From NCBI RefSeq assembly GCF_048403405.1, contig NZ_CP183129.1: a stretch of 64,000 bases of DNA; one strand, written 5' to 3'. The translations under genes were made by a program, and so were the position numbers. Numbering within the stretch: the stretch's first letter is position 1; every line of letters begins with the position of its first letter. Below, one piece after another: positions 1-8,186 of the stretch. The notes beneath the pieces were generated by a model, which made no database searches, was not told where the DNA came from, and was given only the letters and a program-made list of their open reading frames with translations. The stretch comes from Escherichia coli. Lineage in GTDB: Bacteria; Pseudomonadota; Gammaproteobacteria; Enterobacterales; Enterobacteriaceae.

Positions 1-570
1 CCTGGCAGTACAGGCTTCCCCTCTGACGGGATAGCCTGAAAAAATAACACAGAAAATTATTTGTTATAATTAATATAACTTACTCAAAAAAAAGCGACGA
101 GAAAATCAGCATCAACGAACAATAAGCGCCAATACGTGATAACAAATGGCAGCCATATTTATCTGCAGTATAAGCAATGGACAGGATAACCACTCCAGAA
201 ACCGTCAGCATAAAATCCATTTGAACTTCCCCGGACAAAATCGACTCATCTAAAGATTTACAGCTCTTTTTATTATCAATATGTTAAAAGTAAAATAAAC
301 AGATGTTCAATAACACGAATACAAAAACGTGCTGAAATTCAATGAATCCATTTCTGTGTCATCAATTAATAGTGATAAACATCCGGCTTCTTCCACCATC
401 GCACCGGACAGGCGACTATGAGGGGACAACGCCGCGCTCCGTTAACGCGGTAAACCCCGGTGTGTGTCGTTTTTGATTATCCCCGCACACTCGCGCAGAG
501 GAGTCTCCCTGTCGGGCTGCGGTCTCTGTTAATGCGGGGATACGGCGACAATACCGCGCATCAGCAAAAC

Positions 571-1044
571 CTATTTCAGGCACTGAGTGCGGATATAGTC
601 CTGCGCCCCTTCCAGCTGCTTCTGCATCAGCATCAACCGTTCTCTGAGAGTGAAATAATCCCGTTCAGCGGTGTCTGCCAGTTGGGGGCCGGTTGTATTA
701 TCCACGCGGGCGGTGCCGGTGGCTTCACGCACGGGACCTGGACAGGTGGCGTTGATACGCAGGCGCTTACGACCAGCGGCAACGTCAGCGCGAAGAGTTT
801 CATTTTCAGCTCTCGCATCGGCTAATTCCCTCGAGTATTTTGCATCGAGCGCAGCAACATCGCGCTGGCGCACCTGCATATCAGTAATGGTTGCGTTCGC
901 CAGCTTCAGTTCACTGGCTTTGTTATCGCGCTGCGCTTTGTAGGTAATCGCGTTATCACGGTAATGGTCTGTTGCCATCCACAGCGCTCCACAGGCCACC
1001 AGCAGAATAACGATAAACGCGGAAAGCATTCGGTTTATGTTCAC
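571..1044 (-). CDS. Rz-like i-spanin, last gene of the lysis cassette
   Basis: 157-aa ORF with N-terminal hydrophobic segment and charged/coiled-coil-like periplasmic part; fully contains an out-of-frame lipoprotein ORF (Rz1), the embedded spanin arrangement of lambdoid phages. Confidence 0.8.
633..818 (-). CDS. Rz1-like o-spanin lipoprotein, embedded in Rz in another frame
   Basis: Signal peptide ending in lipobox VSAC followed by proline-rich mature region ([14 protein letters not shown]); lies entirely inside 571..1044. Confidence 0.7.
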
Positions 1045-1172
1045 CCCAGCAGCCCCGACGAAGACAACATCATCCAGGCCATGGAAAGAAAAAGAGCAAC
1101 CAGCATTAGTGAAAATGAAATGCCGACAATTACACAGAGGATCTTCGCCAGCGTTATGAGTTTGTCTGACAT
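1041..1172 (-). CDS. small hydrophobic membrane peptide (43 aa), function unknown
   Basis: Internal ATG of the 73-aa ORF ([10 protein letters not shown]...); single TM helix; start of Rz overlaps its stop; no recognisable family. Confidence 0.35.
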
Positions 1173-1186
1173 GCTTAATCCTCCCT

Positions 1187-1369
1187 TCACGATTTCAACG
1201 CAATGACCAGTTTTGCCAGCCCATACAGCATCGGGGACACAGCAACACCGACCGCCACCCACTTAATGGCAAAAGCCAGTGCTCTGCTGATGTCATCAGT
1301 TACAGGCGCTTTCAGTTCAAGGCCGTTTTTCATAGTCAACCTCAACAGAATTCGTTTATACTTTTCCAT
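1187..1369 (-). CDS. small membrane-anchored protein (60 aa), possible lysis accessory
   Basis: ATG at 1369 preceded by AGGGAG Shine-Dalgarno; C-terminal hydrophobic helix; sits between endolysin and Rz. Confidence 0.4.
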
Positions 1370-1403
1370 GTTCTCCCTTGCCTTATCCAAGGTCAGAAAC
1401 ACA

Positions 1404-1436
1404 AAACCCCGCTTGCAGCCAACAAACGGGGTTTTT
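1404..1436. terminator. hairpin with flanking T/A runs between endolysin and downstream small gene
   Basis: aaccccg...cggggtt stem with ttttt on plus strand and T-rich tract on minus strand; large loop, so weak. Confidence 0.3.
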
Positions 1437-1525
1437 ACTTTTATTCACTTAGGTTTTGCCAGTTCTCAGGATTTCGTGTTATCCGTCCGCATTAGCCAAC
1501 GTCATTTTTCAACAAAATATTCTGC

Positions 1526-2059
1526 TTATTTGTCAATTCCCCAGCACGCCAGCGCGCTCTCCTGGTCACGCCGTGAGACCTGTCCATAGCAGTTATTTGA
1601 ACGAATACGGCAGTCTCTGCCACCGTCCTTAATCCACCAGCGAATCGCCTCACATGCTCCCCTGCGATCGCCAGCATTAATTCGTCTGTAAAACGTCGAC
1701 GGGAAACACTTACCGGGACCAATGTTGTACGGACAGAATGACGCGATCCCCGCTTTCTGGGGTTCGGTCAATGGCACTTTGATGTTTTTCTCCACCCATG
1801 CCAGCGCCTTATCACGCTCAATGGCGTTAACCCGGTCGCATTTTTCCTTCGACAACTTCATGCCCGGAACGACAGGTTTGCCATCCACCAGGATGGCACC
1901 GCGGCAGATGGTCCAGATACCCGCGCCATCACGGTATGCCGTGGTGTGGTTACCTTCCTTTTCATCCAGAAACTGGTCGAGAATGTCAGGCGCAGGCGCA
2001 CCAGCGGCAATCAGCGCCAGAACGGCAGCCGACAGGCCGTATCTGATTTTTGCGTTCAT
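1526..2059 (-). CDS. SAR-type phage endolysin (T4-lysozyme-like, GH24)
   Basis: N-terminal weakly hydrophobic Ala/Gly-rich signal-anchor-release segment (LSAAVLALIAAGAPAP) then E-x8-D-x5-T catalytic motif (EGNHTTAYRDGAGIWT); paired with a pinholin upstream. Confidence 0.85.
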   Translation of the reverse strand: MNAKIRYGLSAAVLALIAAGAPAPDILDQFLDEKEGNHTTAYRDGAGIWTICRGAILVDGKPVVPGMKLSKEKCDRVNAIERDKALAWVEKNIKVPLTEPQKAGIASFCPYNIGPGKCFPSTFYRRINAGDRRGACEAIRWWIKDGGRDCRIRSNNCYGQVSRRDQESALACWGIDK

Positions 2060-2164
2060 GGATATTTATCAGGATTTATCGGTTTCTGAGCCCTGGATAT
2101 GTTTATCAGTTCCAGCCTGTTGCCTCAGGCTGCTAACAGGTCAATACAATCATGAGGATTATTT

Positions 2165-2437
2165 ATGGACAATAACACCATTTCTCTACAGGAGTTGCTC
2201 GACAGCATTTCCAGGCTTCGGGAAGACGTGAATACCCTTACCGTCGCCTTCTCATATCTGGCATTCTCAATTCCAAGGGAACAGATGCAATCAACGCTGG
2301 CATCAATCCAGTTTGAATCATGCAATCCCAAATGGTCTCAGGAACAACAAGACTCTTTCAGGCGGCTTGCTGTATTACTGGATGAAAAATATGCTGGTAA
2401 AATTACCATTTCGGCGGACTCTTCAGAGAACCCGTAA
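2165..2437 (+). CDS. hypothetical 90-aa protein encoded antisense to the late operon
   Basis: ATG at 2165 with GAGGA Shine-Dalgarno 6 nt upstream; no TM or signal peptide; 3' end overlaps the convergent 114-aa gene by 35 bp. Confidence 0.45.
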   Translation: MDNNTISLQELLDSISRLREDVNTLTVAFSYLAFSIPREQMQSTLASIQFESCNPKWSQEQQDSFRRLAVLLDEKYAGKITISADSSENP

Positions 2438-2747
2438 TTATTCCCGGTAGTTTTCCTCTGTAGGTTATCAACACATCCTGCGCCTCTAAAATTACGGGGC
2501 GCTTTTCCGGCGACTGCTCATCCCCTTCACATAACCCGGCAGCAACATCCAGGAAGACCTGTCTGATGCTCCTTCTGGCTGCTGCCTCATAAAACTCCAG
2601 CGCGGCACCTTCAACACGGTCCAGCGAGATGTCCAGGTCAAAAATTTCACCGTCAAAGCGTTTTTTGTCCCGTAACGCTAAAGTTACCGTAACTTTATTC
2701 TCAAAATTGCGGATCCCTTTCACAATCAGTTTATAGTTTTGAGTCAT
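2403..2747 (-). CDS. hypothetical 114-aa protein between holin and endolysin
   Basis: ATG 4 nt after the holin stop with GGAGAG Shine-Dalgarno; no recognisable domain. Confidence 0.55.
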   Translation of the reverse strand: MTQNYKLIVKGIRNFENKVTVTLALRDKKRFDGEIFDLDISLDRVEGAALEFYEAAARRSIRQVFLDVAAGLCEGDEQSPEKRPVILEAQDVLITYRGKLPGIITGSLKSPPKW

Positions 2748-2751
2748 TGAA

Positions 2752-2967
2752 TTACTCTCCCCGTGCAGCCTTACGACGGTCCTCTCTGATTTTGAAATAC
2801 AGGTTAGTCAGATATGTCAGCAGCCCAAACAGCAGACTCCCCAGCACGCCTATTGCCGCCCACTGAGACGGGGAAACCCTGTCCAGCAACTGCAGGAACC
2901 AGTAGCCCGTTCCCACCGCTGACGTGGTGTATGACACACCTGTTGTGATTTTTTCCATCTGGTACAT
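2752..2967 (-). CDS. class II pinholin (phage 21 S21-like), dual-start motif
   Basis: [10 protein letters not shown]... two closely spaced Met starts; two TM segments; C-terminus ...[22 protein letters not shown] matches S21 as recalled. Confidence 0.8.
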
Positions 2968-3117
2968 ACCCCGTCTCCCGTTATCCGGAAGCTGACAACA
3001 ATAAAAAAAGCCACCAGTTAAGTACTGATGGCTCTGATAACTCATGCAGGCATCTCAGACGACCCACTGACACTACCGGTGAGTTTAACGATACCTTCCA
3101 TTTGGCTGGCTCACTTT

Positions 3118-7529: not shown

Positions 7530-8186
7530 TTATTTTTTATCATCTAAATTTAAGTCTTCAATTAACCGTCCCACAGCATAAACATCAGTCTTAACTGAAT
7601 ACTCTGCATTATATAAAATCTCGGGAGCCATATATCTTGTACTTCCCATACGGGTACCGATCTCGGTCAATTTAGTGGTATCCCCTTCGGGATTCGTATC
7701 TTTTACCAGACCAAAATCAGACACCTTGTATGTTCCGTCGCTAAATCGCAAAACATTAAAGGGTTTTATATCTCTGTGTAAATAGCCTTTGGCATGGATG
7801 TAAGCTACACCATCTAATACCATTTTCACTATTGAAATTTTTTGATCTGTTGTAAGAAGGTTGTTCGTTATTTCGTGCTCAAGATCACATTCTGCTTTAT
7901 CCATAATGAACCATGGATTCTCAACAAACAAATCGCACAAATAAATAGGAACAATATTGCTATGTACGCAATGTGATTGATACACAACCTCCCTTTTAAA
8001 ACGCCTTCTAAACTGCTCTATTTGCGCCAAAAGCTCTGGTTTTTCGGGTGCTAAAACCTTTCTAGCATAATCCCCGCATTCACCTTTATTGAGGTTGTAA
8101 ACCTTAACGTGTTCAACAAAGCCAAATGCCCCTCTTCCAATCAACTGAATTCGTTTTATAAAGTAATTACCGTGCTGTTCTTCCAT
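7530..8186 (-). CDS. Hanks-type (eukaryotic-like) Ser/Thr protein kinase
   Basis: Gly-rich loop GRGAFGFV, catalytic loop HRDIKPFN, DFG (VSDFGLV) and APE (YMAPEIL) motifs; start taken at internal ATG 8186 because the ORF's TTG start lies inside the upstream terminator hairpin. Confidence 0.8.
   Translation of the reverse strand: MEEQHGNYFIKRIQLIGRGAFGFVEHVKVYNLNKGECGDYARKVLAPEKPELLAQIEQFRRRFKREVVYQSHCVHSNIVPIYLCDLFVENPWFIMDKAECDLEHEITNNLLTTDQKISIVKMVLDGVAYIHAKGYLHRDIKPFNVLRFSDGTYKVSDFGLVKDTNPEGDTTKLTEIGTRMGSTRYMAPEILYNAEYSVKTDVYAVGRLIEDLNLDDKK

Follow-up and report, generated by a model that had tools for sequence, protein, structure and literature searches.

We analysed positions 1-570 of a 64,000-nucleotide (nt) stretch of the Escherichia coli chromosome (hereafter the window; NCBI RefSeq assembly GCF_048403405.1, contig NZ_CP183129.1), a segment that carries a lambdoid prophage. 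The tract lies just past the lysis gene Rz, and our best explanation of it, to which we assign a probability of roughly 0.6, is that it consists of two independent, unrelated modules: a structured RNA element of the phage late transcript, conserved among relatives (positions 381-560 of the minus strand, which is the strand of the late genes), and an AT-rich, moron-like insert (positions 1-380, continuing left of the window) placed between this RNA block and ynfO, cos and Nu1 and carrying a plausible gene for a peptide of 46 amino acids (aa).

A preliminary description of the tract had drawn attention to a long-range inverted repeat just past the Rz stop codon. The repeat is present: its arms, TATCCCCGCA (478-487) and TGCGGGGATA (533-542), are 100% complementary over 10 nt, are separated by 45 nt, and begin 29 nt downstream of the stop codon in the sense of late transcription (the positions had been given correctly to within 1 nt, and the arms 2 nt too short). 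From the window sequence alone the repeat barely exceeds what chance would give: 4.7% of dinucleotide shuffles of positions 1-700 yield perfect inverted repeats of 10 nt within 100 nt, the whole window contains 32 such repeats (about 0.35 per 700 nt), and the folding energy of positions 380-575 (196 nt) is ordinary on both strands (z-scores of -0.7 and -0.5 relative to shuffles). It is the comparison of relatives alone that shows the repeat to be real.

We aligned 17 and then 75 distinct copies of the block (the additional copies coming from a pattern scan of IMG/VR); in both sets the edges are abrupt, with identity starting and stopping sharply and unrelated flanks on both sides. Matches to positions 375-572, with 75-96% identity, are found in about 400 phage records, among them Shiga toxin phages (Stx1 and Stx2) and lambda-like, Ravinvirus-like and Salmonella ES18-type phages, and BLAST places the block in 4,144 of 5,426 complete E. 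coli genomes (median of two copies, up to 11), where it is nearly always unannotated. A covariance model built from the alignment of distinct copies (R1, effective sequence number 1.41) matches positions 376-563 of the minus strand with 216.8 bits (E = 5e-63), the single copy in the window. Alignment to ordinary conserved intergenic sequence of related phages had been named beforehand as the result that would deprive the tract of interest; positions 381-570 do align to conserved intergenic DNA of phages, but with the base-pair covariation set out below this conservation is not ordinary.

The fold that emerges, in minus-strand positions, begins with domain 1 (464-554), a long irregular hairpin composed of P1 (548-554 with 464-470; 7 base pairs [bp], 99% of alignment cells paired), P2 (532-542 with 478-488; 11 bp, 98% paired), which is the inverted repeat plus a G·U pair, a 2-bp extension of P2 (528-529 with 489-490), P3 (517-521 with 494-498; 5 bp, 99% paired) and P3b (514-516 with 507-509; 3 bp). 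In domain 2a (422-458), P4 (456-458 with 422-424) encloses the hairpin P5 (446-450 with 432-436), and domain 2b is the hairpin P6 (403-409 with 381-387), whose 15-nt loop (388-402; GCGAUGGUGGAAGAA) is purine-rich and nearly invariant. There is also an invariant internal loop, UCGCCG opposite AAUCAAAA. RNAalifold, given the 75 distinct copies in the late sense, recovers P1, P2 with the inner P3, and the 3' hairpin P6; P4/P5 was found by eye in every variant type (CCGCG/CGCGG, CUGUG/CGCAG, CAGC/GCUG and UCUCAU/AUGGGA). A candidate pseudoknot between CACC (459-462) and GGUG (394-397) is 94% paired with only one covarying pair. Two further helices were rejected. CACCGGG/UCCGGUG, which would compete with P4 and P6, is not backed by covariation, because the changes in P6 are compensated within P6, and the inner helix CAGAG/CUCUG predicted for the window copy is not kept in other types (CGCAG/CUGCG is kept).

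We evaluated this fold against column shuffles and against controls in which the 3' partners of each helix were slid by 1-3 columns. In the plain MAFFT alignment 97.1% of cells are paired, versus 35-59% with slid partners, and 12 pairs are changed on both sides, versus 5.3 in shuffles (none of 500 shuffles reaches 12). The model-fitted alignment (78 copies), which leans towards the structure, gives 98.0% paired cells and 14 pairs changed on both sides, and on all five measures 0 of 500 shuffles reached the observed value; over both alignments together, the slid controls pair in 34-64% of cells. The changes extend to several helices: the P2 variants CCCC/GGGG, UCCC/GGGA, UUCC/GGAA and CAUC/GAUG are all compensated; four of the five pairs of P5 are changed on both sides in the model-fitted alignment, and in the P5 region some variants have lost a paired G and C jointly (GGGG/CCCC versus GGG/CCC); and in P6 five of seven pairs are changed on both sides (CCGG/CCGG, CCUG/CAGG, UCGA/UCGA). 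As is generally expected of structured RNA, the helices are kept by compensatory changes beyond what the controls yield.

The pairing also differs between the strands. Read on the late-sense strand, the helices contain 303 G·U cells at 23 positions, 15 of which have G·U in at least four sequences, versus 36 A·C cells with three such positions; at three positions G·U makes up 40-50%, flanked by the corresponding A-U and G-C states. The fraction of paired cells is 97.1% on this strand and 89.5% on the opposite one. A mutational strand bias does not explain the excess of G·U, because C/T and G/A polymorphism is balanced in the unpaired columns (9 versus 7). Single-stranded DNA of late-sense polarity may be an alternative carrier of the structure; RNA is the economical reading, because the strand that bears the structure is that of the late mRNA. 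Taken as a comparison of sequences, these results make it highly probable that an RNA structure on the late-sense strand is under selection.

Several observations weigh against this interpretation. The whole element is no more stable than shuffled sequences (z-score of -0.7), and in the window copy the consensus fold lies at -52 to -61 kcal/mol versus a minimum free energy of -67 kcal/mol (that is, 6-15 kcal/mol above it); domain 1 alone has folding z-scores of -2.4 in the window and -3.5 in lambda, and of about -0.5 in two other variants. The copies are closely related and fall into a handful of major types, and because of this relatedness (effective sequence number 1.41) the independent compensatory events are far fewer than the cell counts suggest. 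The documentation of the shuffle test itself cautions that kinship among the sequences can be enough to outperform shuffled columns even where there is no structure; more weight therefore rests on the slid partners and on the asymmetry between the strands. The unpaired segments are conserved as strongly as the paired ones, and constraint at the DNA level, an antisense function or frequent recombination may be the source of the conservation. The RNA itself and its ends are predicted from comparing sequences, and any cleavage of it is hypothetical.

The surroundings of the block are highly variable. Among 145 loci, it always has the same orientation as the Rz and terminase genes, and it has at least 10 types of upstream neighbour and at least 11 types of downstream neighbour in more than 25 combinations. 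Upstream stand Rz, a reverse-oriented bor, rha or one of several small open reading frames (ORFs); downstream stand a reverse-oriented ynfO or ybcV, the 46-aa ORF, a TonB-like fragment, other small ORFs or at least three types of terminase small-subunit gene. Phage lambda has a full-length copy (NC_001416, 46865-47038, plus strand; locus L153, 2366-2539; 115 bits) between bor and lambdap78, with domain 1 and P6 intact and the middle hairpin diverged. As separate observations on this copy, its P6 region is also a promoter-like sequence in the late sense (CTGACA-N17-TATGAT, 10 of 12 consensus matches), and a promoter-like site directed towards bor overlaps the 5' edge of the element. The laboratory strain K-12 MG1655 carries a diverged, full-length copy in the prophage DLP12 (NC_000913.3, 579006-579180, plus strand; L017, 5007-5181; 121 bits) between borD and ybcV, and a decayed, AT-rich remnant in the prophage Qin beside ydfO (L018, 5462-5617, minus strand; 17.6 bits); neither has a RefSeq annotation. 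We note that ybcV and ydfO are paralogues, so that in both of these cryptic prophages a DUF1398 gene accompanies the element.

The block also occurs in two other arrangements. In phage YDC107_1, two copies of the element (L010, 1502-1689 and 2453-2639) flank a gene for a hypothetical protein of 198 aa, as if two phages that each bore the element had recombined and thereby captured a moron. A truncated copy is present on about 560 IncF/ColV plasmids, some 170 bp from the serum-resistance gene iss, the plasmid homologue of bor (in pH2332-166, L152, 2447-2604, it comprises domain 1 only, at 81% identity); these plasmid copies are a relic of the bor-block arrangement and mark the iss region as having come from a phage. 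Only Escherichia, contaminant contigs and chance matches were returned when 100,044 species genomes were scanned with a pattern (the exact pattern misses diverged copies such as that of ES18), and the element appears to be confined to phages of Escherichia, Shigella and Salmonella.

How the element might act is a separate question. Because we find neither a promoter nor a terminator of its own, we take the late transcript, antiterminated by Q, to include it. In late transcription the polymerase has to pass through the element, because in functional phages (lambda, 933W-type Stx phages, ES18) it lies upstream of the packaging and head genes. We tentatively propose that the element acts in cis, at the RNA level, on the processing or the stability of the late mRNA, within the gap between lysis and packaging genes, the only long untranslated gap that the late operon would offer: the interrupted duplex of domain 1 (roughly 25 bp) may be a target for RNase III-type or other endonucleases, or a barrier to 3' exonucleases, and such punctuation would uncouple the fate of the lysis and moron mRNA from that of the packaging and head mRNA. 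With P1 (7 bp), P2 (11+2 bp) and P3 (5+3 bp) stacked in one arm, domain 1 has about the two helical turns of an RNase III-type duplex.

Two known systems offer points of comparison. RNase III processing hairpins occur in the polycistronic mRNAs of phages (T7 R1.1 and related sites, lambda sib, the N-leader site); judged by its predicted fold, domain 1 resembles them as a long interrupted duplex in an untranslated operon gap through which polymerase reads, whereas the element is not known to be related to them in sequence and possesses two further hairpins and invariant loops that they lack. The put RNAs of phage HK022 are cis-acting folded RNAs that modify RNA polymerase; they lie just downstream of early promoters and comprise about 70 nt with two stems. 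The element is similar in being a conserved multi-stem RNA within a lambdoid operon that would act as RNA, but it differs in length (about 180 nt), in position (5 kb into the late operon) and in its carriers, phages in which Q antitermination is already at work. Invariant loops are more than a simple stabiliser would require, which counts against the processing and stability role.

Because the invariant internal loop and the P6 loop exceed what a punctuation role requires, a released or trans-acting RNA stays alive as an explanation, and we consider it possible, though doubtful. In it, a domain of about 180 nt would be cut from the late transcript and bind a protein or RNA through the invariant loops AUAAUCAAAAACGAU and GGUGGAAGAA, as a late-phase regulator, a decoy or an assembly cofactor. 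Its gene-like behaviour and sharp edges, with morons inserted on either side, favour such an RNA, as do the invariant single-stranded segments (more than a stabiliser needs), the multi-helix architecture with its possible loop pseudoknot, and the terminator of a neighbouring moron in prophage Sp10 of E. coli O157 Sakai, which stops exactly at the edge of the element. On the other side, scans find no promoter or terminator of its own and there is no Hfq-type 3' end; nor does such a species appear in the RNA interaction by ligation and sequencing (RIL-seq) and Northern study of lambda (10.1101/2024.10.31.621285) or among the mappable Sakai Hfq sites. Broadening the idea to any unrecognised, late-expressed and self-contained functional RNA, with ribozyme-like self-processing that would divide the late transcript or with protein binding in late expression, packaging or host takeover, leaves us no more confident; in that case the invariant internal loop and the hairpin loop would be the active or binding sites.

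Candidates for an already known or conventional small RNA (sRNA) were rejected individually. An Hfq-dependent sRNA gene is not indicated, as there is no conserved upstream promoter (the flanks differ) and no 3' terminator, and the mapped Sakai Hfq sites fall outside the block. The lambda sRNAs LPR1/PreS, LPR2 and 6S are located elsewhere, AgvB/AsxR and the Pas sRNAs sit in the moron site after PR' or possess terminators, and EcOnc08, EcOnc21 and EcOnc42 are located between tRNAs and the esterase gene. Searching Rfam 15 with cmscan (window positions 1-3000, E-values up to 1) gave no match in 1-570, and the Sakai loci that contain the block had no Rfam match on it. Resemblances seen by eye to Chi (GATGGTGG versus GCTGGTGG) and to boxA (GCAUUAACA) were dropped, since either the conserved bases are not those that match or only part of the motif is matched. 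A search of the open literature for RNase III processing in the vicinity of bor and terminase returned no paper, and the invariant sequence strings returned only unrelated primer matches. So far as Rfam 15 and searches of the open literature show, the element is apparently undescribed.

The nearest described features are EcOnc10, EcOnc11 and EcOnc12, orphan Hfq-binding sites in the Sakai prophages Sp12, Sp10 and Sp9, respectively (Tree et al. 2014, PMC4104026, Table S2). These sites, of which EcOnc10 and EcOnc12 are homologues of EcOnc11, share with the element the intergenic zone that separates Rz from the packaging genes, the Sp10 site being about 20-70 nt from the element, but they are on the opposite strand and their type of flank is absent from the window. 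At face value EcOnc11 would lie inside the block on the opposite strand; a coordinate shift of about +140 nt, applied because AgvB in Table S2 is offset from its Rfam position in the current Sakai record, moves it 20-70 nt beyond the block, and the corrected Sp12 site agrees with placement outside the block. Coinciding with the corrected EcOnc11 is the Sp10 terminator mentioned above (CUGCUGUG-ACUCCAA-CACGGCAG-U7, an 8-bp stem with a 7-nt loop; L155, 6441-6510; NC_002695.2, about 1946940-1947009, minus strand), which is directed opposite to the late genes and ends exactly at the 3' edge of the element. It is probably the 3' end of the transcript of ECs_1967, a ynfO-like gene, or of an sRNA derived from it.

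A linker at the DNA level, kept alike by homologous recombination between lambdoid phages and with a merely incidental fold, is in our judgement unlikely. The strikingly combinatorial flanks, the duplicate copy in one phage, the equal conservation of paired and unpaired parts, and the truncated relics that move with bor and iss onto plasmids are all what such a junction would produce. Recombination alone, however, does not predict 12-14 two-sided changes that preserve pairing (0 of 500 shuffles), and neither the one-strand excess of G·U nor the fixed orientation is predicted by it.

Somewhat more improbable is a function of the opposite strand, as the 3' untranslated region, attenuator or leader of reverse-oriented morons expressed in the lysogen (ynfO, ybcV, lambdap78, bor). 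In 42 of 145 loci the element has a reverse-oriented gene directly beside it, the order on that strand in lambda, DLP12 and phage ev203 is p78, ybcV or ynfO, then the block, then bor, and a U-run (CGUUUUUGAUUAU) is present on that strand, where the scan calls a weak terminator in lambda. Yet 8.7% of helix cells become A·C when read on the opposite strand, including positions mismatched in about half of the copies; many carriers (933W-type phages and the window) have no reverse-oriented gene beside the element; and the reverse transcript in Sp10 has its own strong terminator just outside the block.

That the block is a small protein gene we regard as very improbable. An ORF of 55 aa does run over it (416-583, minus strand; 81 aa in 933W-type phages), it matches PHROG 6954 ('Rz-like spanin', 81 aa) with an E-value of 1.4e-14, the only match that Pfam, NCBIfam and PHROG gave for three small ORFs, and several phage records annotate a coding sequence there. 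The frame nevertheless contains stops in the ev203, L021, S135, PV11-77 and L037 types, and stops present in nearly every copy close the other two sense frames; the column entropies of the three codon phases (0.393, 0.377, 0.388) have no three-base periodicity; variants of the block differ by frame-breaking indels of 1, 10, 13 and 17 nt; and the start of the ORF falls in whatever gene lies upstream, which differs between phages. The PHROG 6954 ORFs thus occupy the same DNA as the block without being conserved or showing a coding signature, and these annotations are probably artefacts, the name having likely been carried over from the adjacent Rz. An intrinsic terminator of the late or lysis operon, which the preliminary description had offered on the strength of an inverted repeat right after the last lysis gene, is equally hard to sustain: rather than a short-loop, G+C-rich hairpin there is a 10-bp stem enclosing 45 nt, no U-tract follows it on either strand (AUCAAAAACG 3' of the stem on the late strand, CGGCGACAAU on the other), the terminator scan finds no site on the late strand in 1-1100, and the downstream genes of viable phages need the same transcript.

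The second module, the moron-like insert, accounts for the low G+C content noted at the start of the tract. The G+C fraction is 0.33-0.38 in 200-nt windows over positions 1-400 and 0.55-0.60 from about 400 onward, and BLAST against phage records and the alignments place the split between the modules at about 376-381. Among complete E. coli genomes, 733 have positions 1-380 (732 of them at 95% identity or more), and just two phage records match them, versus about 400 for the adjoining block; the insert is missing from most phages that have the neighbouring block. Its base composition, its patchy presence among related phages and its self-contained layout fit a moron-like unit. Like the lambdoid morons bor and lom, it would add a small gene of deviant composition, with a promoter-like site, variably present between conserved units; unlike them, its product is an orphan peptide of 46 aa without a family, and its promoter and terminator are weak readings.

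It is true, as had been noted, that neither strand of the first 460 nt or so contains an ORF of 60 aa or more (the longest are the 55-aa ORF already discussed and one of 52 aa at 80-238, also on the minus strand). The suggestion that small genes might be hidden there holds for positions 1-380 and fails for 381-570, where the ORF calls are artefacts. The 46-aa ORF (80-220, minus strand; MDFMLTVSGVVILSIAYTADKYGCHLLSRIGAYCSLMLIFSSLFFE) is annotated as a hypothetical protein (WP_000347013.1) by the NCBI Prokaryotic Genome Annotation Pipeline (PGAP). Its product has two hydrophobic stretches (Kyte-Doolittle values above 2) separated by ADKYGCHLLSR and is predicted to be a small membrane protein with two hydrophobic helices. 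No family in Pfam, NCBIfam or PHROG matches it, and a search of 5.8 billion proteins found relatives in E. coli only, making it an orphan of that species. In a copy from strain SHP24 with 81% identity, the frame and the hydropathy are kept, with 9 synonymous and 13 non-synonymous codon changes. A real gene is plausible on these grounds; the 9 to 13 ratio is a weak sign of purifying selection, and the fact that its promoter and terminator were read by eye is a further point against it. A type I toxin-antitoxin system was considered and is not supported: a hydrophobic peptide would suit one, but it belongs to no toxin family in Pfam, NCBIfam or PHROG, no Rfam antitoxin RNA was found, and the only promoter-like site on the opposite strand near the ORF is directed away from it.

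The candidate signals around this ORF are as follows. Upstream, on the minus strand, is a promoter-like TTGAAC-N18-TAACAT (271-300), read by eye and not called by the consensus scan, within about 45 nt over which the window and the SHP24 copy are 100% identical. An AT-rich hairpin (AUAACA/UGUUAU) followed by U6 lies 13 nt after the stop codon (39-67, minus strand), a possible weak terminator seen by eye; its G-C pairs are too few for the terminator scan to call it, and the SHP24 copy does not keep it. Back-to-back with the promoter-like site of the ORF, the scan reports TTTACA-N17-TATGTT (257-285, plus strand; 9 of 12 matches) directed towards the RNA block; it is weak, and such sites are within shuffle expectation, but if it were active its transcript would be antisense to the element in this phage.

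The neighbouring genes confirm the position of the tract between lysis and packaging modules. The late genes run on the minus strand in the order holin, lysozyme (1526-2059), Rz (571-1044, the i-spanin, with its stop codon 10 nt upstream of the conserved block); Rz1 (633-818) is embedded in Rz. The Rz called by PGAP ('lysis protein') has 459 nt in strain 118UI (locus L001, 8571-9029) and starts 15 nt downstream of the GTG of the longest ORF, and not all of the identical genomes have Rz1 annotated. Several clinical strains are 100% identical to the window over positions 1-700, and we used one of these, 118UI, to extend the window leftward (coordinates in L001 are those of the window plus 8000). 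Past Rz in the sense of late transcription come the tract, a reverse-oriented ynfO, a lambda-type cos (GGGCGGCGACCT), Nu1 and the large terminase subunit; cos and Nu1 are found some 450-1170 nt to the left of where the window starts, ynfO stops 53 nt short of the window edge, and no gene crosses that edge. The proposal of a boundary with the packaging region therefore stands in a loose sense, the tract being a mosaic junction of lysis and packaging modules with cos and Nu1 to its left.

Three further features were also seen. A hairpin at 1403-1435 (AAAACCCCG...CGGGGTTTT), inside the lysis cassette between the lysozyme gene and the two small ORFs that precede Rz, has U-runs on both sides and resembles a bidirectional intrinsic terminator on both strands; the terminator scan reports it, with 14 pairs, on the minus strand. 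The only hit of the Rfam search, a rimP-leader at 1371-1445 (E = 0.32), is a chance match that corresponds to this hairpin. Many copies in Stx phages (1720a-02 and VT1-Sakai types; L003, L004) have an inverted repeat, AAAATGATAATGGTTATCATTT, just downstream of the element in the late sense, which resembles a Fur box (GATAATGATAATCATTATC), and a similar sequence, GATGATAATAATTATCATTT, stands just before cos in the phage of the window (118UI, L001, about 7590-7610).

Lambdoid phages are the best-studied temperate phages, and they carry the Shiga toxin genes. This unannotated unit, about 180 nt long, stands in the late operon of lambda, of DLP12 in K-12 and of most Stx phages, and in three quarters of complete E. 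coli genomes, frequently more than once. The ORF and 'Rz-like spanin' (PHROG 6954) annotations laid over it are probably wrong, and the block itself is a useful landmark for the junction of lysis and packaging genes and for following up what phages have left behind, as in the iss region of ColV plasmids. Because lambda and K-12 carry copies, the element is readily testable by standard genetics. If its structure is indeed selected as RNA, the element would constitute an undescribed point of post-transcriptional control in the late operon, situated where the lysis genes (in Stx phages, the genes for toxin release) meet the packaging genes.

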